Sequence record: PV173775
DNA length: 64,000 bases
From: Escherichia phage GEP001
Strand: one strand, 5' to 3'
The position numbers and the translations under genes are program-made. Position 1 is the stretch's first letter; each line of letters begins with the position of its first letter. A model generated the notes under the pieces. That model did not search any database. It saw only the letters and a program-made list of their open reading frames with translations, and was not told the DNA's origin. Shown piece after piece: positions 800 through 59,769 of the stretch.

Positions 800-829
800 G
801 TTTACTTTTCCTCTTGACTGTGGTATAAT
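800..829 (+). promoter_or_regulatory. T4-type early promoter (regB)
   Basis: GTTTAC 800-805, 18-nt spacer, TGTGGTATAAT ending 829. Confidence 0.6.
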
Positions 830-856
830 TTTTCTATCAGTTAAGAGGAGAATAAC

Positions 857-3238: not shown

Positions 3239-3420
3239 GTCTGAGCAAAGAACAAAAAGATAAATTGTTTGAGCTTATCCATGAACTTCTAGATGAGCAT
3301 ACAGAAGCAAACACCTTTTATGATGAATACGGCCCGCTATCTCCCGATCAGCAAGAAGAATTTGCTGATCGGTTTGATAAGAAAGAAAATGAATTAATAG
3401 CTTATGTGAATACGCTTTAA
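3235..3420 (+). CDS. hypothetical acidic protein (61 aa)
   Basis: ATGA overlap with upstream ORF; directly precedes tk. Confidence 0.5.
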   Translation: MSLSKEQKDKLFELIHELLDEHTEANTFYDEYGPLSPDQQEEFADRFDKKENELIAYVNTL

Positions 3421-5804: not shown

Positions 5805-5834
5805 GTTTACAAGTTGGCAAGGTTATGGTATAGT
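5805..5834 (+). promoter_or_regulatory. T4-type early promoter
   Basis: GTTTACAAG, 18-nt spacer, TATAGT; partial inverted repeat around -10. Confidence 0.55.
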
Positions 5835-5862
5835 AATCTTGTCAACTGCCAAGGAGAAGAGA

Positions 5863-8556: not shown

Positions 8557-8606
8557 ATTTCTATGGTACTATACAACTATCAACTGATACGGATTTGGAG
8601 AATAAA

Positions 8607-9575
8607 ATGAAAACTGTAACTATCAATAAGGGTATCTACTTCGGTAAAGAAATCTCTGGAACTTTTGAGCTCTTAGGCGAATGGTTCCCAGATAATGCTC
8701 CGGTAGATGCACAAGGAGATGGTAAAGTTTTTGTTGAAATTGACGGTAAACGTCGCGGTGTTTGGGTTTACAAATCAGATATTTCATATGATGGTGTAAA
8801 AGTTGAAGAAGTTAAAGAATCATATGAAGATATGAAAACCCGCATTAATAAAAGATTTAATGTTATGGGAATGATGACGAACGGTATTATTAATGGAAAT
8901 ATTCGTTCATTAATTATCTCTGGCGCAGCAGGTATTGGTAAAACGTATTCTTTAGATAAAGCTTTAAATAAAGCAAATGATATTGGATACATTGAATATA
9001 AAAGCATTAATGGTAAAATCTCTGGTATTGGTCTTTATGAGCAGCTTTGGAATAATCGTGAAGAGAATTCTGTCCTTTTGATTGATGATGTGGATGTTTT
9101 CTCTGATATGGACATTCTTAATCTTCTAAAAGCTGCTCTGGACACTGGAGAGACCCGTAAAGTCTGCTGGAGCACTGCGTCTTCTTACTTAGAAGAAAAA
9201 GGCATTGACCGTGAGTTTGAATTTAAAGGAACGATTGTTTTTATCACAAACGTTGACATTGACCGCGAATTAGACCGTGGTACTAAACTTGCTCCACATT
9301 TACAAGCATTAGTGTCCCGCTCGGTTTATTTGGATTTGGGTGTTCACACTAATGAAGAAATTATGGTCAGGGTTGAAGATGTTATTCTTTCAACTGACAT
9401 GATGCAAAAGCGTGGTCTTTCTGATGAAGAAACTTATAAAGCATTATCATGGATGAAAGTTAATGTTAACCGTTTACGCAATGTTTCACTGCGTACTGCT
9501 CTTTATCTTGCTGACTTTATTATGACCGACAAAAACGGTTGGGAAGAAATCGCTGAGGTTACTCTTCTGAAATAA
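8607..9575 (+). CDS. AAA+/P-loop ATPase
   Basis: Walker A GAAGIGKT and Walker B LLIDDVD; ATG after GGAGAATAAA; longer track ORF reads through the terminator/promoter. Confidence 0.65.
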   Translation: MKTVTINKGIYFGKEISGTFELLGEWFPDNAPVDAQGDGKVFVEIDGKRRGVWVYKSDISYDGVKVEEVKESYEDMKTRINKRFNVMGMMTNGIINGNIRSLIISGAAGIGKTYSLDKALNKANDIGYIEYKSINGKISGIGLYEQLWNNREENSVLLIDDVDVFSDMDILNLLKAALDTGETRKVCWSTASSYLEEKGIDREFEFKGTIVFITNVDIDRELDRGTKLAPHLQALVSRSVYLDLGVHTNEEIMVRVEDVILSTDMMQKRGLSDEETYKALSWMKVNVNRLRNVSLRTALYLADFIMTDKNGWEEIAEVTLLK

Positions 9576-9981: not shown

Positions 9982-10011
9982 GTTTACAAGACTGTTTCTC
10001 TGTGGTACTAT
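9982..10011 (+). promoter_or_regulatory. T4-type early promoter (repeat family copy)
   Basis: GTTTACAAGACTGTT..CTCTGTGGTACTAT; near-identical to 35564-35593. Confidence 0.55.
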
Positions 10012-10039
10012 ACAACTATCAACTACGGAGGAACACAAA

Positions 10040-10567
10040 ATGAATGCTAAAGATATTTTCAACTTGGTAAATTACAACGATGGTAAATTTAAATCTGAAG
10101 CACAAAGCAAGTTCTTTAATGACATCTCAATCGGAGGTGAAATCACAGTTGATGGAGGACAAATTTATAAATCCCGTTGGAATTGGATCGTTATTATCGA
10201 TGAGATTGGTATTGTAGAAATTTACAAGAATACGAATAAAAATCGTACATTACATTGGTCTCGTGATACTAACGAACAGTACAAAAAGGATAAAGCATCT
10301 AAATTATCTCGTGTAACTCAAGAAGATATTGAGTTCATCAAGAAAGATATTTTAATGTATGATAACTTAATTGCTGAAGAGCAAGCTGTTATTGATAAAT
10401 TTGATGAGATTAAAGCTTCTCGTGAAATTCCTGATTTTATGAAAGAATCAGTAAATGAACGATACTCTCTCATTTCAGAGCGTATTGAAACTTACAAAAA
10501 GCAAAGAGCTGAACGCCAAAATACTCTTCGGAAGTTTGAAGAACGGTTAAAGACGGTACTCGCATAA
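10040..10567 (+). CDS. hypothetical protein with C-terminal coiled-coil tail
   Basis: GGAGG SD after early promoter; C-terminal 60 aa charged heptad-like. Confidence 0.55.
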   Translation: MNAKDIFNLVNYNDGKFKSEAQSKFFNDISIGGEITVDGGQIYKSRWNWIVIIDEIGIVEIYKNTNKNRTLHWSRDTNEQYKKDKASKLSRVTQEDIEFIKKDILMYDNLIAEEQAVIDKFDEIKASREIPDFMKESVNERYSLISERIETYKKQRAERQNTLRKFEERLKTVLA

Positions 10568-12965: not shown

Positions 12966-12994
12966 TTTACTTTGCCACAAGGATGTGGTATAAT
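12965..12994 (+). promoter_or_regulatory. T4-type early promoter
   Basis: GTTTACTTTGCCACAAGGATGTGGTATAAT; near-identical to 59740-59769. Confidence 0.6.
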
Positions 12995-29340: not shown

Positions 29341-29351
29341 TTTATAAGAGA

Positions 29352-29378
29352 TTATGCTTTAATTTATTAGAGTATAAT
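29352..29378 (+). promoter_or_regulatory. candidate middle promoter upstream of 45.2-like ORF and rpbA
   Basis: TGCTTTA 29355-29361, 11 nt, TATAAT 29373-29378; flanked by inverted repeat AGAGATTAT/ATAATCTCT. Confidence 0.5.
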
Positions 29379-29395
29379 CTCTATGGAGGAAAAAC

Positions 29396-35459: not shown

Positions 35460-35480
35460 GGGACCTCCGGGTCCCTTTTT
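35460..35480 (+). terminator. intrinsic terminator after gene 43
   Basis: GGGACC TCCG GGTCCC followed by TTTTT. Confidence 0.8.
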
Positions 35481-35563
35481 CATACAAGTAATATAAATCT
35501 ATACTTAGGAAAAATAGATGATTCTGGACCTCTGGAATTCATTAAAAAATTTTTCACAAAATG

Positions 35564-35593
35564 GTTTACAAGACTGTTCCTCTGTGGTACTAT
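35564..35593 (+). promoter_or_regulatory. T4-type early promoter (repeat family copy)
   Basis: GTTTACAAGACTGTTCCTCTGTGGTACTAT; follows gene 43 terminator. Confidence 0.55.
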
Positions 35594-35627
35594 ACAACTA
35601 TCAACTGATGCGGATTTGGAGAATGAA

Positions 35628-36008
35628 ATGAAAATCGCTATTTTGGTTATTGCATTGGGTCTTACTGGTTGTGTAGCTCAAGGACCAGTAGTAAATCAGT
35701 CTGATGTAGGAAAAATTGTAAACTGCTCAAGCAAATTTTATAATCCTAATGTTAAGTGTTATAAAGAAGCTCCAAAACAGACAGTAGAACAAATGCAGGC
35801 GAATTTTGACGAAGCTATTCGTCCAGATGAATCTGCCCAAGCATATCGTAATTCAGATGTAATTACACGCGAAGAAAAAATTGAAAGCTACTGCGCTGAA
35901 CTTTGGGCTAATTGGGCTAATAATTACCAATGGCGTACTGGTAAAAATGCTCCGATGGAGTATGTAGTGAATTCTTATAATTCATGTGTAAAAAATTTGA
36001 CTAAGTGA
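35628..36008 (+). CDS. lipoprotein (126 aa)
   Basis: signal peptide with lipobox LTGC; GGAGAATGAA SD; track ORF N-terminus reads through terminator/promoter. Confidence 0.6.
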   Translation: MKIAILVIALGLTGCVAQGPVVNQSDVGKIVNCSSKFYNPNVKCYKEAPKQTVEQMQANFDEAIRPDESAQAYRNSDVITREEKIESYCAELWANWANNYQWRTGKNAPMEYVVNSYNSCVKNLTK

Positions 36009-36015
36009 GGAAAAC

Positions 36016-36267
36016 ATGGAAACTTTAGTAGCAGGTTCAATTTTTATGGTTTTAGTTTCAGGCGTGTTGGCTATTATTATATACATGCTTCCATGGTTCA
36101 TCGCCTTGATGCGTGGGTCAAAATCGACAGTAGGAATCTTTTTCACATCTTTACTGTTTAACTGGTCAATTATTGGTTGGTTTATTACATTTATTTGGTC
36201 AATTGCGGGTGAAACTAAAAAATCTGCACAGCAAAACCAAGTAATTATCATCAGAGAGAAGGAATGA
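36016..36267 (+). CDS. imm: superinfection immunity membrane protein Imm
   Basis: 83 aa, two transmembrane helices; matches T4 Imm in size and position next to 43/42. Confidence 0.75.
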   Translation: METLVAGSIFMVLVSGVLAIIIYMLPWFIALMRGSKSTVGIFFTSLLFNWSIIGWFITFIWSIAGETKKSAQQNQVIIIREKE

Positions 36268-36413
36268 AAAGCAAAATTATAGCAGTGTTGCTTTTAATCT
36301 TGATGATTATAATAAGTATATACTATAGTGTAACGGTTCCTCTTATGATTCCAACGCTTATTATAGGGTGGAGTTTATTACTGTTACAAGTTAAATATGA
36401 ATGTATCAATTGA
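36264..36413 (+). CDS. small hydrophobic membrane peptide (49 aa)
   Basis: ATGA overlap with imm; two hydrophobic segments; ends 8 nt before gene 42. Confidence 0.4.
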   Translation: MKSKIIAVLLLILMIIISIYYSVTVPLMIPTLIIGWSLLLLQVKYECIN

Positions 36414-36420
36414 GGTTTAA

Positions 36421-37161
36421 ATGATTAATGACTCTATGACAGTTGAAGAAATCCGTCTTCATTTGGGAATTGCATTAAAGGAAAAAGATTTCGTAATTGA
36501 TAAAACCGGTGTTAAAACTATTGAAATTATTGGTGCATCATTTGTAGCAGATGAACCTTTTATTTTTGGCGCTCTTAATGATGAATACATTCAGCGTGAA
36601 CTTGAATGGTATAAGTCTCAAAGTTTGTTTGTTAAAGATATTCCAGGTGAAACGCCGAAGATTTGGCAGCAGGTAGCATCTTCTAAAGGCGAAATTAACT
36701 CGAATTATGGTTGGGCCATCTGGTCAGAAGATAACTATGCCCAGTATGATATGTGTTTAGCTGAACTTGGTCAAAATCCTGATTCTCGCCGCGGTATCAT
36801 GATTTATACTCGTCCATCCATGCAGTTTGACTACAATAAAGATGGCATGTCAGATTTCATGTGTACGAATACAGTGCAGTACCTGATTCGTGATAAGAAA
36901 GTCAATGCAGTGGTTAACATGCGTTCAAATGACGTGGTCTTCGGATTCCGTAATGATTATGCATGGCAAAAATACGTACTAGATAAATTAGTATCTGATT
37001 TGAATGCAGGTGATTCAACTCGTCAGTATAAAGCAGGTTCCATTATATGGAATGTCGGGAGCCTTCATGTGTATTCCCGTCATTTTTATTTGGTTGACCA
37101 TTGGTGGAAAACTGGCGAAACTCATATTGCGAAAAAAGATTATAACGGTGAGTGGAAATGA
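36421..37161 (+). CDS. 42: dCMP hydroxymethylase gp42
   Basis: 246 aa; thymidylate-synthase-like fold motifs; matches T4 gp42. Confidence 0.9.
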   Translation: MINDSMTVEEIRLHLGIALKEKDFVIDKTGVKTIEIIGASFVADEPFIFGALNDEYIQRELEWYKSQSLFVKDIPGETPKIWQQVASSKGEINSNYGWAIWSEDNYAQYDMCLAELGQNPDSRRGIMIYTRPSMQFDYNKDGMSDFMCTNTVQYLIRDKKVNAVVNMRSNDVVFGFRNDYAWQKYVLDKLVSDLNAGDSTRQYKAGSIIWNVGSLHVYSRHFYLVDHWWKTGETHIAKKDYNGEWK

Positions 37162-38000
37162 TTCAATTCGTAATTCCAAGCTATCAACGCGTAGGGGCAG
37201 TTTCTGCCCTTGATATGTTTCCGACTGATTATGAACCTCATATTGTAGTACGTGAACACGAAGAAAAAGCTTATTATGACGCTTACGGGTCTAGAGCTAA
37301 AATTATAACTATTCCTGATGATGTTAATGGAATTGCTGGTACTCGTAAAGCAATTACTGATATGTATGCAGGTCAACGAATCTGGATGATTGATGATGAT
37401 ACTACTATTCGTATGAGTTCAATGCGAAAGAAAGATGATCGTCGCTGCGTAGATAAAATTAATCAATTAACCCGTGAACAGTTCTATGAATTGATTCAAT
37501 ACGTGGAAGATGCCATGGATTGCGGGTATTATCATGGTCATGCTCGTTTACCAATTTTTAAAATTACTTCATCTTGGGGTAATTATCGTGAAAATTCATA
37601 TGGATTCACGAATACCTGGTATGATTTAGGAAAACTTACAACAGAACAAATTGGGTATGGAAAAATTGATTTATGCGAAGATATGTATGCATTTCTCAAT
37701 TTAATTAATCAAGGTTATCCGCATTTGGCCTTGTTCAAATATCTGGTTGTATCTGGAAAAGCACAAGCTCCTGGCGGGTGCAGTTCAATTCGTAGTAATT
37801 CTAAACATAATAGAGCGCTTGAGCAAATCAATAGAGAGTTTCCAGAGCAAGCTCGTTGGAAAACTTCTAATATTGAAAAACGAAAATCGTTGGGTGAAGA
37901 AGACGAGCCATTAAAGGTTCTTCGCATGTGTGTTTCGCGCAAAGAAAAGTCAGAAGCATTTCATAAGTTTAATGCTATTCATCCAATAGCAGTTGATTAA
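37158..38000 (+). CDS. GT-A-type glycosyltransferase (candidate beta-glucosyl-HMC-alpha-glucosyltransferase)
   Basis: N-terminal IPSYQR and downstream DDD (DxD) motif; occupies the beta-gt slot between 42 and uvsX; ATGA overlap with 42. Confidence 0.55.
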   Translation: MIQFVIPSYQRVGAVSALDMFPTDYEPHIVVREHEEKAYYDAYGSRAKIITIPDDVNGIAGTRKAITDMYAGQRIWMIDDDTTIRMSSMRKKDDRRCVDKINQLTREQFYELIQYVEDAMDCGYYHGHARLPIFKITSSWGNYRENSYGFTNTWYDLGKLTTEQIGYGKIDLCEDMYAFLNLINQGYPHLALFKYLVVSGKAQAPGGCSSIRSNSKHNRALEQINREFPEQARWKTSNIEKRKSLGEEDEPLKVLRMCVSRKEKSEAFHKFNAIHPIAVD

Positions 38001-38077
38001 TGCCTAAATTTATTGTGTTATAATTACTCTATCTTTAACCAGTGAGGAAAATATAATGATGCCTATGGAAAAAATGA

Positions 38078-39259
38078 ATGTCTATTGCAGATTTAAAATC
38101 CCGTTTGATTAAAGCTTCCACTTCTAAAATGACTGCTGAACTGACTACATCTAAATTCTTTAATGAAAAGGATGTAATCCGTACAAAAATCCCAATGCTT
38201 AATATCGCTATTTCTGGTGCGATTGATGGTGGTATGCAGTCTGGTTTAACCATTTTTGCAGGTCCTTCTAAACACTTTAAATCAAATATGTCTTTGACTA
38301 TGGTTGCGGCGTATTTGAACAAATATCCTGACGCAGTTTGTCTATTCTATGATAGCGAATTTGGTATTACTCCAGCTTATTTGCGATCCATGGGAGTTGA
38401 CCCGGAACGAGTAATTCATACACCAATCCAGTCAGTTGAACAACTGAAAATTGATATGGTGAATCAGCTTGAAGCTATTGAGCGTGGTGAAAAGGTTATT
38501 GTATTCATCGACTCAATCGGTAATATGGCTTCTAAGAAAGAAACGGAAGATGCCTTGAATGAAAAATCTGTGGCAGATATGACTCGTGCTAAATCACTGA
38601 AGTCATTATTCCGTATTGTTACTCCTTATTTTAGTATTAAAAACATTCCATGTGTTGCGGTTAACCATACAATTGAAACAATTGAAATGTTTAGTAAAAC
38701 CGTGATGACAGGTGGTACAGGCGTAATGTATTCGGCTGATACTGTATTCATTATCGGTAAACGTCAGATTAAAGATGGTTCTGATCTTCAGGGGTATCAA
38801 TTTGTTCTAAATGTAGAAAAATCTCGTACTGTCAAAGAAAAAAGTAAATTCTTTATTGATGTTAAATTTGACGGTGGTATCGATCCTTATTCTGGATTGT
38901 TAGATATGGCTCTTGAATTAGGATTTGTGGTAAAACCTAAAAATGGCTGGTATGCTCGTGAATTTCTTGACGAAGAAACCGGCGAGATGATTCGCGAAGA
39001 AAAATCTTGGCGTGCAAAAGATACCAATTGCACTACATTCTGGGGTCCTTTATTTAAACATCAGCCATTCCGAGATGCTATTAAACGTGCTTATCAGTTA
39101 GGTGCTATTGATAGCAATGAAATTGTTGAAGCTGAAGTTGATGAATTGATTAACTCAAAGGTTGAAAAATTTAAATCTCCAGAAAGTAAAAGTAAATCAG
39201 TAGCTGATTTAGAAACTGACCTAGATCAGTTAAGTGATATGGAAGAATTTAATGAATAA
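38078..39259 (+). CDS. uvsX: recombinase UvsX (RecA-like)
   Basis: 393 aa; Walker A GPSKHFKS; matches T4 UvsX. Confidence 0.95.
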   Translation: MSIADLKSRLIKASTSKMTAELTTSKFFNEKDVIRTKIPMLNIAISGAIDGGMQSGLTIFAGPSKHFKSNMSLTMVAAYLNKYPDAVCLFYDSEFGITPAYLRSMGVDPERVIHTPIQSVEQLKIDMVNQLEAIERGEKVIVFIDSIGNMASKKETEDALNEKSVADMTRAKSLKSLFRIVTPYFSIKNIPCVAVNHTIETIEMFSKTVMTGGTGVMYSADTVFIIGKRQIKDGSDLQGYQFVLNVEKSRTVKEKSKFFIDVKFDGGIDPYSGLLDMALELGFVVKPKNGWYAREFLDEETGEMIREEKSWRAKDTNCTTFWGPLFKHQPFRDAIKRAYQLGAIDSNEIVEAEVDELINSKVEKFKSPESKSKSVADLETDLDQLSDMEEFNE

Positions 39260-39596
39260 AGATGATTTAGATTTAGATCTAGAAATTATCGATGAATCCC
39301 CCTCTTCGGAGGGGGAAGAAGAAAGAAAAGAACGTCTTTTTAATGAATCTCTTAAGATAATTAAATCTGCCATGGAAAATGTTATCCAGGAGATTGTCAT
39401 TAAACTAGAAGATGGTTCTACACACATTGTGTATGTGACAAAATTAGATTGGGTTGATGGAAAAGTCGTAATGGACTTTGCTGTTCTTGATCAAGAAAGA
39501 AAAGCTGAGTTAGCTCCTCATGTAGAAAAATGTATTACAATGCAACTACAAGATGCATTTAATAAAAGGTCAAAGAAAAAATTTAAATTCTTTTAA
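39252..39596 (+). CDS. 40: gp40 head vertex assembly chaperone
   Basis: ATG 39252 overlapping uvsX stop, GGAAGA SD; about 114 aa acidic protein in the T4 gene 40 position. Confidence 0.65.
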   Translation: MNKDDLDLDLEIIDESPSSEGEEERKERLFNESLKIIKSAMENVIQEIVIKLEDGSTHIVYVTKLDWVDGKVVMDFAVLDQERKAELAPHVEKCITMQLQDAFNKRSKKKFKFF

Positions 39597-39605
39597 GGAG
39601 TAAGT

Positions 39606-41033
39606 GTGGTAGAAATTATTCTTTCTCATCTCATATTTGATCAAGCTTATTTTTCAAAAGTTTGGCCATATATGGATTCAGAATATTTTGAAAGTGGTCC
39701 AGCTAAAAATACATTCAAATTAATTAAATCTCATGTCAATGAGTACCATAGCGTTCCATCTATTAATGCGTTAAATGTTGCATTAGAAAATAGTTCATTT
39801 ACTGAAACAGAATATTCTGGTGTAAAAACACTTATTTCGAAACTAACCGATTCTCCAGAAGACCATAGCTGGTTAGTAAAAGAAACAGAAAAATACGTTC
39901 AGCAAAGGGCGATGTTTAATGCTACGTCTAAAATAATTGAAATTCAAACTAATGCTGAGCTTCCTCCGGAAAAACGCAATAAGAAAATGCCAGATGTAGG
40001 TGCTATTCCTGACATCATGCGCCAAGCATTATCAATTTCATTTGATAGTTACGTTGGTCATGATTGGATGGATGACTACGAAGCACGTTGGCTATCTTAT
40101 ATGAATAAAGCTCGTAAGGTTCCATTTAAACTCAAAATTCTAAATAAAATTACTAAAGGCGGAGCTGAAACTGGAACACTGAATGTTTTAATGGCTGGTG
40201 TTAACGTTGGTAAGTCATTAGGTCTGTGTTCATTGGCAGCAGATTATTTGCAGCTCGGACATAATGTTCTTTACATTTCCATGGAAATGGCTGAAGAAGT
40301 CTGTGCTAAACGTATTGATGCTAATATGCTTGATGTTTCTCTTGATGACATTGATGATGGGCATATTTCTTACGCTGAGTATAAAGGAAAAATGGAAAAA
40401 TGGCGTGAGAAATCTACTCTCGGTCGTTTAATCGTTAAACAGTATCCTACTGGTGGAGCAGACGCTAATACATTTCGATCGCTTTTAAACGAATTGAAGC
40501 TCAAGAAGAATTTTGTTCCAACAATCATTATTGTCGACTATCTAGGTATTTGTAAATCTTGCCGCATCAGAGTTTACTCAGAAAATAGTTACACAACTGT
40601 TAAAGCCATCGCAGAAGAATTGCGTGCTCTGGCTGTTGAAACCGAAACTGTTCTTTGGACTGCAGCACAGGTTGGTAAGCAAGCTTGGGATTCTTCTGAT
40701 GTTAACATGAGCGATATTGCAGAATCTGCCGGTCTTCCAGCAACAGCCGATTTTATGCTTGCGGTCATTGAAACTGAGGAGTTAGCAGCTGCTGAACAAC
40801 AACTCATTAAGCAAATCAAATCACGATATGGCGATAAGAATAAATGGAATAAGTTTTTGATGGGTGTTCAAAAAGGAAATCAGAAATGGGTAGAAATTGA
40901 ACAAGATTCTACTCCAACTGAAGTGAACGAAGTGGCAGGTTCACAGCAGATTCAAGCTGAGCAGAATCGCTATCAAAGAAACGAATCCGCTCGAGCTCAG
41001 TTAGATGCTTTGGCAAACGAATTAAAATTTTAG
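39606..41033 (+). CDS. 41: replicative DNA helicase gp41
   Basis: 475 aa; GTG start after AAGGAG; Walker A GVNVGKS; DnaB-like; matches T4 gp41. Confidence 0.95.
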   Translation: MVEIILSHLIFDQAYFSKVWPYMDSEYFESGPAKNTFKLIKSHVNEYHSVPSINALNVALENSSFTETEYSGVKTLISKLTDSPEDHSWLVKETEKYVQQRAMFNATSKIIEIQTNAELPPEKRNKKMPDVGAIPDIMRQALSISFDSYVGHDWMDDYEARWLSYMNKARKVPFKLKILNKITKGGAETGTLNVLMAGVNVGKSLGLCSLAADYLQLGHNVLYISMEMAEEVCAKRIDANMLDVSLDDIDDGHISYAEYKGKMEKWREKSTLGRLIVKQYPTGGADANTFRSLLNELKLKKNFVPTIIIVDYLGICKSCRIRVYSENSYTTVKAIAEELRALAVETETVLWTAAQVGKQAWDSSDVNMSDIAESAGLPATADFMLAVIETEELAAAEQQLIKQIKSRYGDKNKWNKFLMGVQKGNQKWVEIEQDSTPTEVNEVAGSQQIQAEQNRYQRNESARAQLDALANELKF

Positions 41034-41073
41034 TTTACAAGCCGACAAGACTATGGTATAGTAGTCTTGTCGG
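41033..41073 (+). promoter_or_regulatory. early promoter of dmd with perfect 12-bp inverted repeat around -10
   Basis: GTTTAC 41033-38, TATAGT 41057-62; arms CCGACAAGACTA (41042-53) and TAGTCTTGTCGG (41062-73). Confidence 0.6.
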
Positions 41074-41091
41074 TTAAATGAGGAGATTTTT

Positions 41092-41274
41092 ATGGAATTG
41101 GTAAAGGTAGTTTTTATGGGGTGGTTTAAGAATGAAAGCATGTTTACTAAAGAAATCACAATGATGAAAGATGACGTTCAATGGGCTACTACTCAATATG
41201 CTGAAGTTAATAAAGCGCTAGTTAAAGCTTTCATTGATGACAAGAAAGTATGCGAAGTGGATTGCCGAGGATAA
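41092..41274 (+). CDS. dmd: Dmd antitoxin (inhibitor of RnlA/LsoA toxins)
   Basis: 60 aa; sequence matches T4 Dmd as recalled; early promoter with perfect inverted repeat upstream. Confidence 0.8.
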   Translation: MELVKVVFMGWFKNESMFTKEITMMKDDVQWATTQYAEVNKALVKAFIDDKKVCEVDCRG

Positions 41275-41275
41275 T

Positions 41276-41533
41276 ATGCATATTGTTTTATTTAAACCTA
41301 CTCCGTATAACGTCAGGAAAAATACTCAATTCAAAGCACTTATCGCAGATACGTGGGAATTGGTATTAGATATTCCAGCAGAAGAAAGCCCTCCATTTGG
41401 TCGAGTGGAATTTATTAAGTTTGCTGTGCGCCCTACAAAGCGGCAGATTCGCCAATGCAAAAGATACTTTCGTAAAATCGTCAAGTTAGAGAAACAGTTT
41501 GTAACATGTGATTATACAGAAGTTTTAAAATAG
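41276..41533 (+). CDS. hypothetical protein (85 aa)
   Basis: GAGGA SD; ATG 2 nt after dmd stop. Confidence 0.55.
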   Translation: MHIVLFKPTPYNVRKNTQFKALIADTWELVLDIPAEESPPFGRVEFIKFAVRPTKRQIRQCKRYFRKIVKLEKQFVTCDYTEVLK

Positions 41534-41535
41534 TA

Positions 41536-41578
41536 GTTTACAAGCTGATAGAGTTGTGTTATAGTAATTCTATCAGCT
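41536..41578 (+). promoter_or_regulatory. early promoter with 9-bp inverted repeat flanking -10
   Basis: GTTTAC 41536-41, TATAGT 41560-65; arms AGCTGATAG (41543-51) and CTATCAGCT (41570-78). Confidence 0.55.
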
Positions 41579-41596
41579 AATCGCGGAGAAAAGAAA

Positions 41597-41851
41597 ATGA
41601 TGCTAGTTAATAGAGAATATCAGTTTAAATCAGAAGAAGATTTGGAAAAATTCGCGAGCGGTTGTGAACTGAATAGACGCACAGCTAAAGTCATAGGATT
41701 AAAACCCTTTACAGTTCTAGATTGTGAAGTTTCTAAATTCCGCAGAGGGTGTTCTATTAGCGGTCATGCTCTGGTTGATGGGAACACATTTTTCTTTGTT
41801 TTTAGCGTCAGAGAACTTTTATTGATTAACGAACTTGAGGAAATAAAATAG
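41597..41851 (+). CDS. hypothetical protein (84 aa)
   Basis: GGAG SD 9 nt upstream; own early promoter with inverted repeat. Confidence 0.55.
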   Translation: MMLVNREYQFKSEEDLEKFASGCELNRRTAKVIGLKPFTVLDCEVSKFRRGCSISGHALVDGNTFFFVFSVRELLLINELEEIK

Positions 41852-41915
41852 TTTACTTTTGTTTTAAACATGTTATTATAGACCTATCAAAACAAACGAG
41901 TAAATGGAGAATAAA

Positions 41916-42095
41916 ATGTCTAAAGTATCAGGTTATCAATTATTAACACAAGAACAACGTTCAGAGATGGATTCTTTACAAGAACGGTGTCAGCATAGAA
42001 ATAACGCACTTGATTCATTTTTATTAGTTGAATATGAAAACTTGTGCTCTAGACTTGAAAAAGAATATGTTCATCAACATGGAGGAGAAGAATGA
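41916..42095 (+). CDS. hypothetical protein (59 aa)
   Basis: GGAGAATAAAATG initiation motif; alternative ATG at 41904. Confidence 0.45.
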   Translation: MSKVSGYQLLTQEQRSEMDSLQERCQHRNNALDSFLLVEYENLCSRLEKEYVHQHGGEE

Positions 42096-42198
42096 AACTG
42101 AAATCACCAATTATTGTAATTTGTCTGTTTGCTTCTACTAGTGTTTACTTTTGTTGAAAATTGAGATACTATAAACATAAACTACTGAGGAGATTATC

Positions 42199-42492
42199 AT
42201 GAAAAAATTTATCTTTGCTGCAATTTTTGCTTTATCTTCTTGCGCTGCTCAGCCTGCTATGGCGGGTTATGACAAAGATTTGTGTGAGTGGTCTATGACT
42301 GCAGATCAGACTGAGGTTGAAACTCAGATTGAAGCCGATATTATGAATATCGTTGAGCGTGATCGTCCTGAAATGAAAGCTGAAGTGCAAAAACAACTTA
42401 AGTCTGGTGGTGTAATGCAGTATAATTATGTTCTGTATTGCGATAAAAACTTTAATAATAAAAATATCGTAACCGAAATCACAGGCGAATAA
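42199..42492 (+). CDS. sp: Spackle periplasmic protein (lysozyme inhibitor / superinfection exclusion)
   Basis: 97 aa with cleavable signal peptide; size, position between dmd and 61 and sequence consistent with T4 Sp. Confidence 0.7.
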   Translation: MKKFIFAAIFALSSCAAQPAMAGYDKDLCEWSMTADQTEVETQIEADIMNIVERDRPEMKAEVQKQLKSGGVMQYNYVLYCDKNFNNKNIVTEITGE

Positions 42493-42493
42493 T

Positions 42494-43126
42494 ATGATTT
42501 ATTATATGCACAAAAATCCACCGTTTAAATATGGTAAATTTCCTGATGCACAATGTTATAATATAACACCTAATGAAAATAACCGTGGATATCTTATTGG
42601 CACAATTTTTGTAATTGTTAAAGATAACGAAATCGTTGCCTGGGCAGATTTTAAAGGTACAACATATGATGTTAATCCGGTGCCTTTCACATATTACAAT
42701 TTAATGGATTTGGCATACGATTATAATTGGTTTAATCATGATACTTTGGCTCATATTGAAGGTGTAGGATTTGATATTTCATATTCGGAATACACTTTAA
42801 GCCCTATGAGTCGAGCCCATAAAGAACCTGAATATTTTTCATTTAGGAAACGTGTAAACTTTAAACGCAGCACAGAGTATATCGGTGGAATCTTTGTTAA
42901 AGATAATCGAATTATTCGTATTAATTATCCTTTGAGCGTTAGTCAAAAAGATATTGATGTTGATTTAGATTTCACTGAAAATAATATTAATAATATTGCT
43001 TCTGTGTATTTTGGTATCGATCACAAAATTGTAATATGTGGATATGAATTACCGTTTGAAGAACAGCCTAAAGTAAAAGTTTCTATTGACGATCAAATTT
43101 TTAATGCTTTTATGAATAAAGGTTAA
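42494..43126 (+). CDS. hypothetical protein (210 aa) with two internal VKDN-motif repeats
   Basis: ATG 1 nt after sp stop; C-terminal SIDDQIFNAFMNKG shared with next ORF. Confidence 0.55.
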   Translation: MIYYMHKNPPFKYGKFPDAQCYNITPNENNRGYLIGTIFVIVKDNEIVAWADFKGTTYDVNPVPFTYYNLMDLAYDYNWFNHDTLAHIEGVGFDISYSEYTLSPMSRAHKEPEYFSFRKRVNFKRSTEYIGGIFVKDNRIIRINYPLSVSQKDIDVDLDFTENNINNIASVYFGIDHKIVICGYELPFEEQPKVKVSIDDQIFNAFMNKG

Positions 43127-43127
43127 T

Positions 43128-43484
43128 ATGTATAGTTCTGAATTTTCATATTTAAAAATGGAAAAAATTTCATACGATTTTATAGATGAAAAGGTTTATT
43201 ACAGTTTCCATGAACCGCGTTTTAATAGTGAGGTTGGGTTTATTGTAGTAAAAGACAATTTCATTTTAAAGATATATTCGGCATTAAAGGATTTTCACTA
43301 CGAAAATATTAACCTAAAATTTGATAAAGAAAACGTTCGTAATTGTGCAGTAACAATTACAGGAAATAAAGGTACATGTGTTATGCTATCTGATGAAATT
43401 AATGATTTGCTAAATGATGTAGAAAAGGTTGCTGTTCCATCGATTGATGACCAAATTTTTAATGCTTTTATGAATAGAGGTTAA
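43128..43484 (+). CDS. hypothetical protein (118 aa), single copy of the VKDN-motif domain
   Basis: ATG 1 nt after upstream stop; C-terminus PSIDDQIFNAFMNRG nearly identical to upstream ORF. Confidence 0.55.
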   Translation: MYSSEFSYLKMEKISYDFIDEKVYYSFHEPRFNSEVGFIVVKDNFILKIYSALKDFHYENINLKFDKENVRNCAVTITGNKGTCVMLSDEINDLLNDVEKVAVPSIDDQIFNAFMNRG

Positions 43485-43485
43485 T

Positions 43486-43650
43486 ATGAAAACATATAAA
43501 GAATTTATCAAAGAAGATATGGTAGCTGGAGATTCGGGTGGTAATCCTGAAAATATCTCTACTGGAACAACGTCAGGCGCTGTAGTAAATAAAGGCCCTG
43601 AACAGATTCCTAAAAAGAAAAAAGAGGAATCTAAAGAAAAAGAAGAGTAA
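43486..43650 (+). CDS. hypothetical small protein (54 aa), Lys/Glu-rich tail
   Basis: GAGG SD; ends 2 nt before gene 61 start; not in ORF track. Confidence 0.4.
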   Translation: MKTYKEFIKEDMVAGDSGGNPENISTGTTSGAVVNKGPEQIPKKKKEESKEKEE

Positions 43651-43652
43651 AA

Positions 43653-44681
43653 ATGTCATCAATACCTTGGATTGATAATGAGTTTGCATATCGTGCATTA
43701 GCTCATTTACCTAAATTTACACAAGTAAATAATAGTTCAACTTTTAAATTGCGGTTTAGATGCCCTGTTTGTGGAGATTCAAAAACCGACCAAAATAAAG
43801 CTCGTGGATGGTATTATGGCGATAATAATGAAGGAAATATTCATTGTTATAACTGTAACTATCATGCACCAATCGGAATATATTTAAAGGAGTTTGAACC
43901 CGATTTATATCGTGAGTATATCTTTGAAATAAGAAAAGAAAAAGGTAAAAGTCGTCCAGTAGAAAAACCTAAAGAACTTCCTAAACAACCTGAGAAGAAA
44001 ATAATTAAATCTCTTCCGTCATGTGTTAGATTAGATAAACTGGCGGAAGACCATCCAATTATAAAATATGTAAAAGCTCGCTGTATTCCAAAGGATAAAT
44101 GGAAATATCTTTGGTTTACATCTGAATGGCCTAAATTAGTTAATAGTATAGCACCAGGAACATATAAAAAGGAAATACCTGAGCCTCGTCTTGTTATTCC
44201 AATTTATAATGCTAATGGAAAAGCTGAGTCTTTTCAAGGACGTGCATTAAAGAAAGATGCTCCTCAAAAATATATCACCATCAAAGCTTATCCTGAGGCA
44301 ACAAAAATCTATGGTGTTGAACGAGTTAAAGATGGTGATGTATATGTTCTAGAAGGACCTATAGATTCACTTTTTATTGAAAATGGTATAGCTATTACAG
44401 GTGGTCAATTAGACCTAGAAATTGTTCCATTTAAAGATAGACGAGTATGGGTTTTGGATAATGAACCTCGTCATCCTGATACTATTAAACGAATGACTAA
44501 ATTAGTTGACGCAGGAGAAAGGATTATGTTTTGGGACAAATCTCCATGGAAATCAAAAGATGTTAATGATATGATTAGAAAGGAAGGTGCAACCCCTGAA
44601 CAAATTATGGAATATATGAAAAATAATATTGCGCAGGGGTTGATGGCTAAAATGCGGCTATCTAAATATGCTAAGATTTAA
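43653..44681 (+). CDS. 61: DNA primase gp61
   Basis: 342 aa; N-terminal zinc ribbon CPVCGDS...CYNC; Toprim-type core; matches T4 gp61. Confidence 0.9.
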   Translation: MSSIPWIDNEFAYRALAHLPKFTQVNNSSTFKLRFRCPVCGDSKTDQNKARGWYYGDNNEGNIHCYNCNYHAPIGIYLKEFEPDLYREYIFEIRKEKGKSRPVEKPKELPKQPEKKIIKSLPSCVRLDKLAEDHPIIKYVKARCIPKDKWKYLWFTSEWPKLVNSIAPGTYKKEIPEPRLVIPIYNANGKAESFQGRALKKDAPQKYITIKAYPEATKIYGVERVKDGDVYVLEGPIDSLFIENGIAITGGQLDLEIVPFKDRRVWVLDNEPRHPDTIKRMTKLVDAGERIMFWDKSPWKSKDVNDMIRKEGATPEQIMEYMKNNIAQGLMAKMRLSKYAKI

Positions 44682-44878
44682 ATTAACCCAACTAAAGCAA
44701 ATGCTAAATCTACGAATGTATCAAGAGTAATTACTGGAATACTAACGCCATGAGCAATAGCAACTGGCGATAAAACAAAATTCCAAAGTAAAATTCCTAT
44801 CATAGCAGAAATAGTAAAAGCTATACGTTTTTTATTACCTTTGATGGCATTAACAAGTGCCATTAATTTTTGTACCAT
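44678..44878 (-). CDS. small hydrophobic membrane protein (66 aa), opposite strand
   Basis: minus-strand ATG preceded by AAAGGAGG SD at 8 nt; two hydrophobic segments; convergent with gene 61. Confidence 0.55.
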   Translation of the reverse strand: MVQKLMALVNAIKGNKKRIAFTISAMIGILLWNFVLSPVAIAHGVSIPVITLDTFVDLAFALVGLI

Positions 44879-44927: not shown

Positions 44928-44973
44928 GTTTACTTTCTCAGCTTGTTGTGGTATTATAAAATAAACTGCTGAG
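44928..44973 (+). promoter_or_regulatory. early promoter upstream of PD-(D/E)xK-like ORF
   Basis: GTTTAC 44928-33, 18 nt, TATTAT 44952-57; CTCAGC/GCTGAG arms; about 60 bp similar to 54341-54400. Confidence 0.55.
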
Positions 44974-44982
44974 GATAATATA

Positions 44983-46322
<1,340 letters not shown>

Positions 46323-49379: not shown

Positions 49380-49409
49380 GTTTACTTTCCTTCCTAACGA
49401 TGATATGAT
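49380..49409 (+). promoter_or_regulatory. T4-type early promoter upstream of modB
   Basis: GTTTAC, 18 nt, TATGAT. Confidence 0.5.
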
Positions 49410-49435
49410 AGCTTCTGAAGTATATGGAGGCTATC

Positions 49436-50059
49436 ATGATTATTAATCTTGCAGATGTTGAACAGTTATCTATAAAAGCTGAAAGTGTTGATTTTCAATA
49501 TGATATGTATAAAAAGGTCTGTGAAAAATTTACTGATTTCGAGCAGTCAGTTCTTTGGCAATGTATGGAAGCCAAAAAGAATGAAGCTCTTCATCGGCAG
49601 TTGAATAAAATCATTAAAAAGCATTTAACTAAATCACCTTATCAGCTATATCGTGGTATATCAAAATCGACAAAAGAGCTCATTAAAGATTTACAAGTTG
49701 GAGAAGTGTTTTCAACGAATAGAGTAGATTCATTTACTACTAGTTTGCACACAGCATGTGGTTTTTCTTATGTTGAGTATTTCACTGAAATAATATTTCG
49801 CTTAAAAACTGATAAAGCTTTTAATTATTCTGACCATATCAGCGATATTATACTTTCTTCTCCTAATACTGAGTTTAAGTATACATATGAAGATACTGAT
49901 GGATTAGATTCAGAACGTACTGATAACTTAATGATGATTGTGCGTGAACAAGAATGGATGATTCCAATTGGAAAGTATAAAATAACTTCTATTTCAAAAG
50001 AAAAATTACACGATTCATTTGGAACATTTAAAGTGTATGATATTGAGGTAGTTGAATGA
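49436..50059 (+). CDS. modB: ADP-ribosyltransferase ModB
   Basis: 207 aa from ATG 49436 (GGAGG SD); R-S-E ART triad context (YRGIS...STN...E); paralog of adjacent gene. Confidence 0.7.
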   Translation: MIINLADVEQLSIKAESVDFQYDMYKKVCEKFTDFEQSVLWQCMEAKKNEALHRQLNKIIKKHLTKSPYQLYRGISKSTKELIKDLQVGEVFSTNRVDSFTTSLHTACGFSYVEYFTEIIFRLKTDKAFNYSDHISDIILSSPNTEFKYTYEDTDGLDSERTDNLMMIVREQEWMIPIGKYKITSISKEKLHDSFGTFKVYDIEVVE

Positions 50060-54340: not shown

Positions 54341-54370
54341 GTTTACTTCCTCGGTTAGTTGTGGTATTAT
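54341..54370 (+). promoter_or_regulatory. T4-type early promoter
   Basis: GTTTAC, 18 nt, TGTGGTATTAT; paralogous to 44928 cassette. Confidence 0.55.
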
Positions 54371-54397
54371 AACACCATAGCTACTGAGGATAATAAA

Positions 54398-55448: not shown

Positions 55449-55484
55449 GTTTACAAACTCTTGGGACCAGAGTATAATGGTCCC
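55449..55484 (+). promoter_or_regulatory. early promoter with inverted repeat flanking -10
   Basis: GTTTAC 55449-54, TATAAT 55473-78; arms GGGACC (55463-68) and GGTCCC (55479-84). Confidence 0.55.
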
Positions 55485-56020: not shown

Positions 56021-56053
56021 AGTTTAAAATTTTTTCATAAAACTATATACATC

Positions 56054-56090
56054 AGTAGTTGATTATGGTACTATATCAATATCAACTACT
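56054..56090 (+). promoter_or_regulatory. promoter-like element with perfect 10-bp inverted repeat around -10
   Basis: arms AGTAGTTGAT (56054-63) and ATCAACTACT (56081-90) flank TATGGTACTATATCAAT; no clear GTTTAC. Confidence 0.4.
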
Positions 56091-56117
56091 GATACAGAAA
56101 ACAACTTGGAGAATAAA

Positions 56118-56387
56118 ATGGAAAACTTAATTATCATCGAACAATCTTTCAACGATTATGGTATGGCTTATGGTTATCGTGCGATAATGGAAGATTCTCG
56201 TGGATGTGTTATCGATATTGCTGAATGTAAAGATTTACTGCAGCTTTTGAAGATTGTTCGCAAAAATTGGGATTGTGAAAACATTAAAGTTCGTGTTGTA
56301 ACGGAAGAAGAAACTGTTTTTCATGATGTAAAATTTGCCAAAGGTGCTGCTACTCTTCTGAAACGCATCGCTCCACTGTTCAATTAA
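56118..56387 (+). CDS. hypothetical protein (89 aa)
   Basis: GGAGAATAAAATG initiation motif downstream of inverted-repeat promoter. Confidence 0.5.
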   Translation: MENLIIIEQSFNDYGMAYGYRAIMEDSRGCVIDIAECKDLLQLLKIVRKNWDCENIKVRVVTEEETVFHDVKFAKGAATLLKRIAPLFN

Positions 56388-59740: not shown

Positions 59741-59769
59741 TTTACTTTACCACAAGGATGTGGTATAAT
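59740..59769 (+). promoter_or_regulatory. T4-type early promoter
   Basis: GTTTACTTTACCACAAGGATGTGGTATAAT; near-identical to 12965-12994. Confidence 0.6.

Follow-up and report, generated by a model that had tools for sequence, protein, structure and literature searches.

The −10 element of several early promoters of Escherichia phage GEP001 (record PV173775) is bracketed by inverted repeats. The repeats are real, and the best of them lie far beyond chance in the 64,000-nucleotide stretch that was analyzed (the window). With moderate confidence, we interpret the corresponding hairpins as T4-type promoter-early stem-loop (PeSL) cassettes in which pairing is selected in RNA of the mRNA sense; their functions, which we infer, would lie at cistron boundaries or in masking of Shine-Dalgarno (SD) sequences. 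Elements of this kind have already been described as PeSLs (Arbiol et al. 2010, PMC2839356; Comeau et al. 2014, PMC4122927), and the advance made here is incremental.

Results

Hairpins at the dmd and ORF-A early promoters

Two cassettes with the same layout (upstream stop, promoter, stem-loop, SD and start codon) precede dmd and a small ORF, hereafter ORF-A. Their features are as follows.

41033..41062, + strand: dmd early promoter, −35 GTTTAC at 41033-38, −10 TATAGT at 41057-62
41040..41054, + strand: 5′ arm of the dmd hairpin, in the promoter spacer, perfect core 41042-41053
41061..41075, + strand: 3′ arm of the dmd hairpin, from the end of the −10 element to about +7, perfect core 41062-41073
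41082..41094, + strand: dmd SD GAGGAG (41082-87) and ATG (41092), outside the hairpin
41536..41565, + strand: early promoter of the extra ORF-A, −35 GTTTAC at 41536-41, −10 TATAGT at 41560-65
41543..41556, + strand: 5′ arm of the ORF-A hairpin (ΔG −18.0, z −4.7; matched by 0 of 500 shuffles)
41565..41578, + strand: 3′ arm of the ORF-A hairpin, followed by AAUCGCGGAG without a U-tract
41597..41851, + strand: ORF-A, 84 aa, phrog_2980

The dmd promoter has the form GTTTAC-N18-TATAGT with a TGn extension (TGG at 41054-56), and AAAATTTTA upstream of it constitutes an AT-rich region. The G of its −35 element also completes the stop codon of gene 41 (TAG, 41031-33). The promoter is an orthologue of the dmd-tifA early promoter of T4 (PMC9391042), and in Yersinia phage fPS-65 the same promoter is annotated as a predicted early promoter. 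The transcription start, predicted from the position of the −10 element rather than mapped, is at about 41069. This position falls within the 3′ arm (41061-75), and RNA started there lacks the 5′ arm.

A perfect 12 bp repeat at 41042-53/41062-73, as originally predicted, was borne out, and RNAfold extends it to a 15 bp stem (41040-54/41061-75) with ΔG of −23.9 and z of −6.7. None of 500 shuffles matched this stem. Directly 3′ of the hairpin stands AAAUGAGGAG, with no U-tract. The window is a Tequatrovirus sequence; in T4, the same hairpin is found at the dmd early promoter.

The ORF-A repeat was located correctly by the original prediction (41543-51/41570-78), but its perfect part is 10 rather than 9 bp long (41543-52/41569-78), and 14 bp are paired when G:U is counted. 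The ORF at 41276-41533 is tifA (61.4); the extra ORFs are those at 41597-41851 and 41916-42095. The module of promoter plus ORF-A is present in EcNP1 and is not present in T4.

Neither hairpin masks the SD. Accessibility of the dmd SD-AUG region was 0.23 in the short RNA vs 0.32 in the long one, and SD accessibility at the 41536 hairpin did not change between the RNAs. An RBS-sequestering hairpin was, therefore, rejected for both 41033 and 41536.

Tests against chance

For each promoter the spacer and the downstream flank were shuffled 500 or 200 times. Stems at 41033, 41536, 5805, 800 and 9982 were reached by 0 of 500 or 0 of 200 shuffles. The excess of palindromes over shuffled controls is thus seen at 5 of 22 promoter-like sites, compared to about 0.1 site expected to beat all shuffles. 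In T4, 8 of 28 promoters beat all shuffles in a test of the same type. Just two repeats in the window are perfect over 12 bp or more, compared to 0.2 in dinucleotide shuffles. Each of them (41042-53/41062-73 and 56051-63/56081-93) encloses a −10 element; three of the ten repeats of at least 10 bp fall within the approximately 2% of sequence that is promoter. About 10 of the 22 early promoters in the window have no hairpin, and the hairpin is therefore not needed for promoter function or at every junction.

Every repeat of the original prediction was found where it had been placed. The repeats flanking the −10 element are strong at 41042, 41543, 56051 and 5811 and weaker at 55463, 44937, 29352 and at the CCACA-AGGA-TGTGG copies. 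Hairpins of this set with the SD outside, together with one upstream of gene 45.2, are listed below.

5812..5847, + strand: paralogous cassette of a mobD.2-like ORF, arms 5812-26/5833-47, loop UGGUAU (5827-5832), −10 TATAGT at 5829-34
56051..56093, + strand: orf89 hairpin, 13 bp perfect (56051-63/56081-93), upstream of an 89-aa ORF
55463..55484, + strand: motB promoter hairpin, GGGACCA/TGGTCCC around TATAAT (55473-78)
29341..29387, + strand: hairpin upstream of 45.2, enclosing a MotA-box middle promoter, not an early one

The imperfect repeat noted at 5811-5846 is, in the same place, a 15 bp stem including G:U pairs. The homologous T4 stem is 14 bp long and all Watson-Crick; G:U pairs of the window copy stem from A-to-G changes. 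The repeat given as 56054-63/56081-90 is likewise correctly positioned, its perfect length being 13 rather than 10 bp. The orf89 hairpin (z −5.2) has a −10-like TACTAT (56069-74) in its loop, with a degenerate −35, ATATAC, at 56045-50.

Among the weaker items, the motB repeat (55463-68/55479-84) is 7 bp long with p of about 0.03; its arm variants GGGATCA and TGGTCCT yield U:G or G:U pairs only. The repeat at 44937-42/44968-73 is 6 bp long, with p of about 0.19 taken alone. At 29352-29380 there is indeed a repeat, but it is 9 bp long, a common length (33 such repeats observed in the window vs 17 expected), and the promoter that it surrounds is not early: TTATGCTTTA, 11 nt and TATAAT correspond to a MotA-box middle promoter (consensus from PMC2988021). 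Both copies of CCACA-AGGA-TGTGG are present, lying wholly upstream of and into the −10 element; half of the repeat is, however, the conserved extended −10 TGTGGTA, and the copies are paralogues (97% identical 32-mers).

Pairing is conserved in the sense strand

Covariation was analyzed in 10 distinct dmd, ORF-A and mobD.2 cassettes; the L013 cassette was left out because of a gap in the alignment. All 140 cells of this set pair, and 0 of 500 shuffles were as good. Six of the 14 pairs changed on both sides with pairing still at 100%; the haplotypes are closely related, so that few independent substitution events (about 9) are represented. In slid registers the paired fraction falls to 21–64%.

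The variation is asymmetric between the strands. There are 23 G:U cells vs 0 A:C cells in the covariation set, and 20 G:U vs 2 A:C pairs in the strong stems of 65 promoters. One pair runs the full path from G:C through G:U to A:U among dmd haplotypes. Sense RNA is more stable than antisense RNA for 5 of 5 window hairpins and for 11 of 14 further matches. Calculated as DNA hairpins, the same repeats are of low stability (−4 to −8 kcal/mol), and in some haplotypes the complementary-strand DNA fold is no better than that of shuffles. The arm sequences are unrelated between promoters.

Occurrence of G:U without A:C, together with the more stable sense folds, points to an RNA hairpin and not to a cruciform or a dimeric-protein site. 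The original prediction of a DNA-level role is not supported, in view of the unrelated arms, the G:U-biased variation and the weak DNA folds, and its premise is wrong, as described below. G:T wobble pairs are also tolerated in single-stranded DNA hairpins, which makes a + strand DNA hairpin conceivable, if improbable.

Read-through RNA is expected to contain both arms

The premise was that the pairing cannot form in mRNA, the upstream arm preceding the transcription start. RNA from the promoter itself does lack the 5′ arm, but read-through RNA started upstream holds both arms. In T4, extension of transcripts begun farther upstream also contributes to the transcription of early and middle genes (PMC2988021). 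A terminator scan of the + strand called no terminator-like site from 35476 to 44841; read-through is therefore expected, and RNA of this kind carries both arms.

The real terminators of the window belong to another family, GC-rich tetraloop sites of the form GGGCTTCGGCCC plus a T-run. Promoters already located behind such terminators (35564 and 47272) have no embedded hairpin. A classical intrinsic terminator was rejected for the promoter hairpins: their 3′ flanks (AAAUGAGG, AAUCGCGG and GCCAAGG) contain no U-tract and the terminator scan is silent. No covariance model of Rfam matched any part of the window at gathering thresholds, and the segment 40900-42300 had no match at E ≤ 1 either.

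GGAG stands 6–7 nt 3′ of each hairpin. The orf89 site fits a GGAGRAYARAA consensus perfectly, ORF-A and mobD.2 sites miss one position (Y) and the dmd site fits poorly. A coupling of the hairpins to RegB sites is speculation.

Hairpins predicted to mask the SD

At regB, modB, motB.2, nrdC.8 and orf186 the 3′ arm includes the SD or the AUG.

806..852, + strand: regB promoter hairpin, 5′ arm 806-823 in the spacer, 3′ arm 834-852 containing the SD GAGGAG
49404..49438, + strand: modB hairpin, 5′ arm 49404-16 comprising the −10 element and discriminator and ending at the predicted start
54348..54390, + strand: motB.2 hairpin, −10 element in the loop, 3′ arm ending in the SD CUGAGGA, ΔG −23.7
9993..10035, + strand: nrdC.8 promoter hairpin, GGAGG within the 3′ arm

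The unpaired fraction of the regB SD-AUG region was 0.69 in RNA from its own promoter and 0.19 in read-through RNA, with a null value of 0.44. The 3′ arm at modB (49426-38) covers both SD and AUG; accessibility dropped from 0.58 to 0.05, a value as low as this being reached by 0 of 100 null shuffles. The motB.2 orthologue in Mosigvirus has a 13 bp SD-masking stem. Thus, at regB, modB, motB.2 and nrdC.8 the SD and/or the AUG is paired in the long RNA.

Occurrence in relatives and exchange of modules

T4 itself has such hairpins at dmd, mobD.2, regB, nrdC.8, ipI and ipIII. A search of IMG/VR with the Dmd protein yielded only 5 loci, and relatives were then sought by DNA-pattern scans. Mosigvirus and unrelated metagenomic T4-like contigs have the same geometry with wholly different stems.

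Near-identical cassette copies, which the original prediction had reported, were confirmed in the window as repeat families D1–D6. Whole promoter-plus-ORF modules distinguish T4, EcNP1 and the window from one another, and the junctions of these modules are at AAAATA-N0-3-GTTTAC. The likeness to mobile PeSL cassettes pointed out earlier also holds, since modules of promoter, stem-loop, SD and start codon are repeated and located at indel junctions between close relatives. Repeated promoter cores may double as homology for exchange of promoter-plus-ORF modules, and such promoter-bounded modules are exchanged inside the dmd-tifA-sp anti-defence neighbourhood.

Discussion

A simple geometric constraint may account for the position of the hairpins. 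With the −35 element abutting the upstream stop and the SD following about 12 nt after the transcription start, free sequence would be limited to the 18-nt spacer and about 17 nt past the −10 element, and a hairpin made from only these two stretches necessarily has the −10 element in its loop. The hairpin would form only in RNA that enters the junction from early or middle promoters farther upstream. RNA from the embedded promoter is predicted to start inside the 3′ arm and to have no hairpin, so that one locus would give rise to two RNA structures.

Hairpins of dmd, ORF-A, mobD.2, orf89 and motB lie between the upstream stop and the downstream SD and have no U-tract. They may act as cistron-boundary elements on the upstream message, serving as a pause site or partial attenuator and as a barrier to 3′-exonucleases that would, for example, guard gene 41 mRNA after downstream cleavage or termination. 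No T4 transcript-end maps were found in the searchable literature, and for this reason the boundary and 3′-protection roles are ones that we infer. For regB, modB, motB.2, nrdC.8 and orf186, read-through RNA would be masked and only the immediate-early transcript translated; this subclass would be an early-promoter mirror of the late-promoter design of T4 e, soc, 49 and I-TevI.

The published reading of PeSLs is that of an efficient intrinsic terminator, which stops upstream transcription while the embedded promoter restarts it. In the single functional test of a PeSL stem-loop, from RB49, downstream lacZ was strongly reduced, as much as by rrnB T1, and the authors interpreted this as termination (PMC2839356). 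The location of the hairpins exactly at gene boundaries and their terminator-like ΔG (−18 to −24 kcal/mol) agree with this reading. We nevertheless regard it as unlikely here: none of the hairpins is followed by a U-tract (UUAAAUGAGG, AAUCGCGGAG, GCCAAGGAG), and the scan that misses them does call sites with a GC-rich tetraloop and a T-run. In addition, T4 tifA, which lies downstream of dmd and is followed by genes 61.x, lacks its own promoter, so that long transcripts must cross similar junctions. That the palindromes have no selected function and are by-products of cassette duplication or recombination, only the promoter being of importance, appears very unlikely. The cassettes are repeated and found at indel junctions, and a hairpin is missing from about half of the promoters; against this stand the two-sided changes of 5 or 6 pairs between paralogues with no loss of pairing, polymorphisms that all keep pairing, and the same geometry with unrelated stems in distant T4-like phages.

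We consider it highly improbable that the repeats are DNA elements, i.e., cruciforms or sites for a dimeric regulator controlling the early promoter, for instance in early-promoter shut-off. The −10 element is at the centre of the dyad, the perfect palindrome at 41042-73 folds on both strands, and shut-off of T4 early promoters, which is not completely understood (PMC3014915), leaves room for such a role. However, the arms have no common sequence, which excludes a single sequence-specific dimeric regulator; many early promoters have no repeat at all; and a dyad conserved across sites and symmetric on both strands, as expected of an operator or cruciform, was not found. The variation consists of G:T on the + strand (A:C on the other), and this strand asymmetry and the low DNA energies, with the minus strand of some haplotypes no better than shuffles, disfavour a cruciform. 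A hairpin in single-stranded + strand DNA, exposed by replication, recombination or transcription-driven unwinding and serving as a recombination or priming signal, would suit the G:T asymmetry, and PeSLs have been linked to recombination and mini-circle formation. Yet the swap junctions lie at the −35/UP region and not at the stems, the DNA hairpin energies are low, and the + strand is the transcribed sense, for which RNA is the simpler explanation; this makes the single-stranded DNA reading extremely improbable. Barely credible to us is a hairpin of the non-template strand only, formed on unwinding or negative supercoiling of the promoter region and used by a structure-specific phage factor, for instance a single-strand binding protein bound to the opposite strand, to turn some of the early promoters off. 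Such a hairpin would agree with variation restricted to G:T. If true, this would provide a mechanism for the unexplained shut-off of early promoters.

If the RNA hairpin reading is correct, one 60-bp junction combines a promoter with an overlapping RNA structure that is met only by transcripts started upstream, and RNA of one gene would behave differently depending on where transcription began. Translation of regB, modB, motB.2 and nrdC.8 may be limited to immediate-early transcripts. The dmd, ORF-A, mobD.2, orf89 and motB loci are suitable for experiments on stability or attenuation of read-through RNA. In genome annotation, such palindromes should be called neither operators nor terminators.

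Comparison with known systems

PeSL stem-loops of phi1 and RB49 are mostly located between the −35 and −10 elements or overlap the −10 element, and are drawn with G-T pairs (PMC2839356); the PeSL papers also cite promoter/stem-loop elements of the IP locus of T-even phages (Repoila et al. 1994). The hairpins described here share this position and the G-T pairs, the succession of upstream stop, AT-rich region, early promoter, stem-loop, SD and start codon, and the repeated occurrence in hyperplastic early regions, beside small ORFs and at indel boundaries of close relatives. Specifically, the dmd and ORF-A cassettes have a σ70-type early promoter with an AT-rich upstream region and a stable stem-loop bracketing the −10 element (ΔG −18 to −24 kcal/mol, z −4.7 to −6.7); they extend from the upstream stop to the SD and start of the downstream ORF, and recur as repeats (D1–D6) at junctions where close relatives differ by insertion, deletion or replacement. 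They differ in that the T-even versions have GTTTAC-N18-TATAGT/TATAAT promoters and varied AT-rich stems rather than GGGG/CCCC ones, and that the window hairpins have no U-tract. For PST/T4, the stem-loops are located immediately upstream of the promoter according to a figure legend; in the window, the two arms enclose the −10 element. In the PeSL papers (PMC2839356, PMC4122927) we found neither strand-specific G:U evidence nor an SD-masking subclass.

In T4 genes e, soc, 49 and I-TevI a late promoter lies inside an RBS-sequestering hairpin (Uzan and Miller 2010, PMC3014915). The soc hairpin of the window (46956-65/46977-86, with TATAAATA at 46947-54) has this design. There, as here, transcription starts between or inside the arms, and the long upstream RNA is structured while the proximal RNA is not. 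The e/soc type, however, involves late promoters and always masks the SD or AUG; hairpins of dmd and ORF-A leave the SD free, and those of regB, modB, motB.2 and nrdC.8 mask SD or AUG but are combined with early promoters.

Promoter-coupled terminators of bacteria (Fletcher et al. 2026, preprint, 10.64898/2026.08.19.745784) similarly unite a termination-type RNA hairpin and a promoter in one short intergenic DNA of dual use between tandem genes. In these the hairpin overlaps the −35 element, a T-tract precedes the −10 element and the 3′ end is about 10 bp upstream of the start. The cassettes of the window do not belong to this class, as their 3′ arm is downstream of the −10 element and their spacer has no T-tract. 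Intercistronic hairpins of T7 early mRNA are RNase III sites that leave protective 3′ stem-loops. Like the hairpins described here, they are located at cistron boundaries of a polycistronic early transcript, where they shape how the preceding message is processed and how stable it is. As RNase III substrates, the T7 hairpins are longer and irregular, and no promoter is associated with them.

Inverted repeats embedded in early promoters

The window is of Tequatrovirus origin; Escherichia phage ECO07P2 matches it best (99.3%), and hundreds of T4-like records reach 90-97%. It is the counterpart of the T4 early region, reverse-complemented, and every gene lies on the + strand. The genes around the dmd promoter are:

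39606-41033, +, gene 41 helicase
41092-41274, +, dmd
41276-41533, +, 61.4 / tifA
41597-41851, +, ORF-A (without T4 counterpart; own early promoter)
41916-42095, +, ORF-B (without T4 counterpart; own early promoter)
42199-42492, +, sp

All the inverted repeats listed in the original prediction lie where it had placed them. At the dmd promoter, GTTTAC (41033-38)-N18-TATAGT (41057-62), CCGACAAGACTA (41042-53) and TAGTCTTGTCGG (41062-73) are perfectly complementary. Folded as RNA, this stem has 15 bp (dG -23.9, z -6.7) and that of the ORF-A cassette 14 bp (dG -18.0, z -4.7). When the spacer and downstream flank were shuffled with the -35 and -10 kept fixed, the stems at 41033, 41536, 5805, 800 and 9982 were matched by no shuffle. 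In the whole window, perfect repeats of 12 bp or more with a loop of at most 40 nt number just two, at 41042 and 56051, both promoter-embedded; 0.2 are expected in dinucleotide shuffles of the window. The comparison with shuffled controls that the original prediction had called for thus places the strong stems beyond chance, and the promoter-embedded inverted repeats are real and non-random. The repeat at 55463 is among the weaker claims (p about 0.03), and that at 44937, taken alone, is not significant. The 29352 repeat is present with 9 bp, a size common in the window, but encloses a MotA-box middle promoter and not an early one. The proposed CCACA..TGTGG motif is in fact a 7-bp hairpin, TACCACA/TGTGGTA, with the conserved extended -10 as one of its halves, and the two copies of the motif are paralogues.

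Within coding sequence, at 3344-3372, there is an inverted repeat with perfectly matching 11 bp arms, CCGATCAGCAA-gaagaat-TTGCTGATCGG, both strands of which are equally stable (about -17 kcal/mol).

Pairing is selected on the mRNA-sense strand

Covariation was analyzed in ten distinct cassettes aligned in one register (seven dmd haplotypes, ORF-A, and mobD.2 from T4 and the window). Standard pairs were found in 140/140 cells, a cell being one base pair of one cassette; 12 of the 14 pairs are variable, with both sides changed in six. None of 500 shuffles was as good as the observed covariation, and shifting the partner by 1-3 columns left only 21-64% paired. Non-Watson-Crick cells comprise 23 G:U and no A:C. 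One dmd pair is G:C, then G:U, then A:U across haplotypes, and motB stem variants are G:U or U:G only. In a set of 65 distinct promoters, a score of at least 12 is reached by 12 stems if G:U is allowed and by six if A:C is allowed instead; the strong stems contain 20 G:U versus 2 A:C pairs. Sense RNA is stabler than antisense in all five window hairpins (-23.9/-19.1, -18.0/-12.6, -19.0/-8.9, -20.2/-18.0 and -21.6/-12.5 kcal/mol), the same hairpins computed as DNA reach only -4 to -8 kcal/mol, and the minus-strand DNA fold in some haplotypes is no better than shuffles. Covariation, G:U-only wobble and sense-strand stability therefore indicate selection on the structure of the mRNA-sense strand. 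This strand-specific covariation evidence for RNA-level structure is an addition of the present analysis. The CCACAAGGATGTGG promoters (12973-12990, 59748-59765) differ at one stem position, TGCCACA vs TACCACA; opposite TGTGGTA in the 7-bp hairpin this is a G:U to A:U change, again pairing-preserving.

A DNA-level role, as a dimeric regulator site or cruciform, had been proposed and is not supported. The arms are unrelated between promoters, which argues against a sequence-specific dimeric protein site, and selection on mRNA-sense-strand structure argues against a two-strand cruciform. The premise that the pairing cannot form in mRNA is true of RNA started at the embedded promoter (own-promoter RNA), whose predicted start at dmd, 41069, lies within the 3' arm, but not of read-through RNA, which starts upstream and crosses the junction. 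T4 prereplicative genes are also transcribed when early and middle transcripts from upstream are extended into them (PMC2988021), and a terminator scan found no terminator-like sites on the + strand from 35476 to 44841; read-through RNA from imm.1-42-uvsX-40-41 therefore has both arms.

Junction compaction

No U-tract follows any of the promoter-embedded hairpins, so they are not classical terminators. The real terminators of the window form a separate repeated family of about seven copies, GGGCTTCGGCCC plus a T-run (about 21780, 25420, 30730, 32680, 57860, 63137 and 63365); these (A)GGGCTTCGGCCC(T)n elements are canonical, with a UUCG tetraloop, and clearly unlike the promoter-embedded hairpins. 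At the promoters at 35564 and 47272 a family terminator is already present upstream and the embedded hairpin is absent. Bracketing hairpins, with arms in the spacer and after the -10, are found at junctions in which the -35 directly adjoins the stop codon of the upstream gene. Such compaction leaves only the spacer and the segment after the -10 free, so that a junction hairpin has to enclose the -10. Compaction, proposed here as the explanation for the -10 in the loop, accounts for the geometry with no need for a DNA-level function.

Two subclasses of hairpins

We divide the hairpins into boundary and Shine-Dalgarno (SD)-masking subclasses, a split added by the present analysis. At dmd, ORF-A, mobD.2, orf89 (89 aa) and motB there are 6-12 nt between the end of the hairpin and the SD, and the hairpin leaves SD-AUG accessibility unchanged. 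We infer a cistron-boundary role for this subclass: the hairpin would act on the upstream message by pausing or attenuation and as a 3'-exonuclease barrier. A search of the searchable literature found no T4 transcript-end maps.

In the other subclass the spacer or -10 region pairs with the downstream SD or AUG, the 3' arm being the SD or AUG at regB, modB, motB.2 and nrdC.8 and weakly at orf186 (186 aa). The early promoters concerned are:

806-852, regB
9993-10035, nrdC.8
44935-44975, orf186
49404-49438, modB
54348-54390, motB.2

Predicted accessibility in read-through RNA falls from 0.69 to 0.19 at regB and from 0.58 to 0.05 at modB, well under shuffled controls; the prediction for this subclass is a masked read-through RNA and an open own-promoter RNA. 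The textbook T4 case, soc, served as positive control: its late promoter TATAAATA (46947-54) is followed just downstream by a hairpin (46956-65/46977-86) pairing the AUG.

A middle-promoter analogue of the embedded-promoter arrangement is seen at 29341-29387, where an AU-rich 21-pair hairpin just before the SD of 45.2 holds a MotA-box middle promoter (TTATGCTTTA 29352-61, 11 nt, TATAAT 29373-78).

Module swaps and other loci

Whole promoter+ORF modules distinguish T4, EcNP1 and the window from one another, with every junction at AAAATA-N0-3-GTTTAC(TTTTGTT), that is, stop codon/UP element plus -35. The tifA (61.4)-sp interval (window 41536-42198) has no extra module in T4, one in EcNP1 (early promoter plus ORF-A) and two in the window (ORF-A and ORF-B). 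This site adjoins the anti-defence genes dmd and tifA.

The 186-aa ORF (phrog_8706, 44983-45543) lies directly 5' of dam (GATC methyltransferase, 45543-46322); the T4 gene 61-dam interval of about 300 nt has no annotated ORF. Pfam gave sub-threshold matches to two restriction endonuclease families, DpnII (E 0.002) and BanI, and the protein has a D..EIK motif. A possible reading is a PD-(D/E)XK nuclease that pairs with the methylase; PDB and NCBIfam gave no support for it. A 5'-UTR cassette, TGGTACTATACAACTATCAACT..GGATTTGGAGAATAAAATG, is repeated at 8560-8613, 9999-10052, 35581-35634 and 56066-56118 (copies up to 94% identical), and the SD region of the 8560 and 56066 copies, GGAGAATAAAA, fits the RegB consensus GGAGRAYARAA exactly.

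Comparison with other phages and known systems

The hairpins at dmd, mobD.2 and regB are shared with T4, which also has closely similar ones at nrdC.8 and bracketing hairpins at ipI and ipIII; of 28 T4 promoters, eight exceed every shuffle. Two Mosigvirus genomes carry promoter-embedded stems of 13-14 bp. Pattern scans of IMG/VR and metagenomes, together with a covariance model made from the cassettes, recovered further T4-like promoters sharing the geometry with unrelated stems (for example GTGTAGGAGTA/TACTTCTACAC, TGGTAGAAGGC../..GTCTTCTACCA, GGTGTAGGATGG/TCATCTTACACC). No Rfam family matched.

SD masking at early promoters repeats the known late-promoter design of T4 e, soc, 49 and I-TevI (PMC3014915); in the T4 reviews consulted, the internal-promoter masking design is given for late promoters only. 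Bacterial promoter-coupled terminators (2026 preprint, 10.64898/2026.08.19.745784) differ in layout from the window hairpins.

Promoter-early stem-loop (PeSL) cassettes were defined in RB49/phi1 as an AT-rich region, early promoter, stem-loop, SD and start codon, and mediate ORF shuffling and mini-circle formation (Arbiol et al. 2010, PMC2839356). Their stem-loops lie mostly between -35 and -10 or over the -10, and the published drawings include G-T pairs; with one of them, downstream lacZ expression fell as much as with rrnB T1 (PMC2839356). Analogous AT-rich promoter/stem-loop elements were described at T-even IP loci (Arbiol et al. 2010, PMC2839356), which the T4 ipI and ipIII hairpins found here match, and PeSLs were later extended to the PST/T4 pair (Comeau et al. 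2014, PMC4122927). All PeSL features testable in silico, indel association included, were found in the window. The resemblance to mobile PeSL cassettes noted in the original prediction is therefore correct, and the window elements are members of this known kind.
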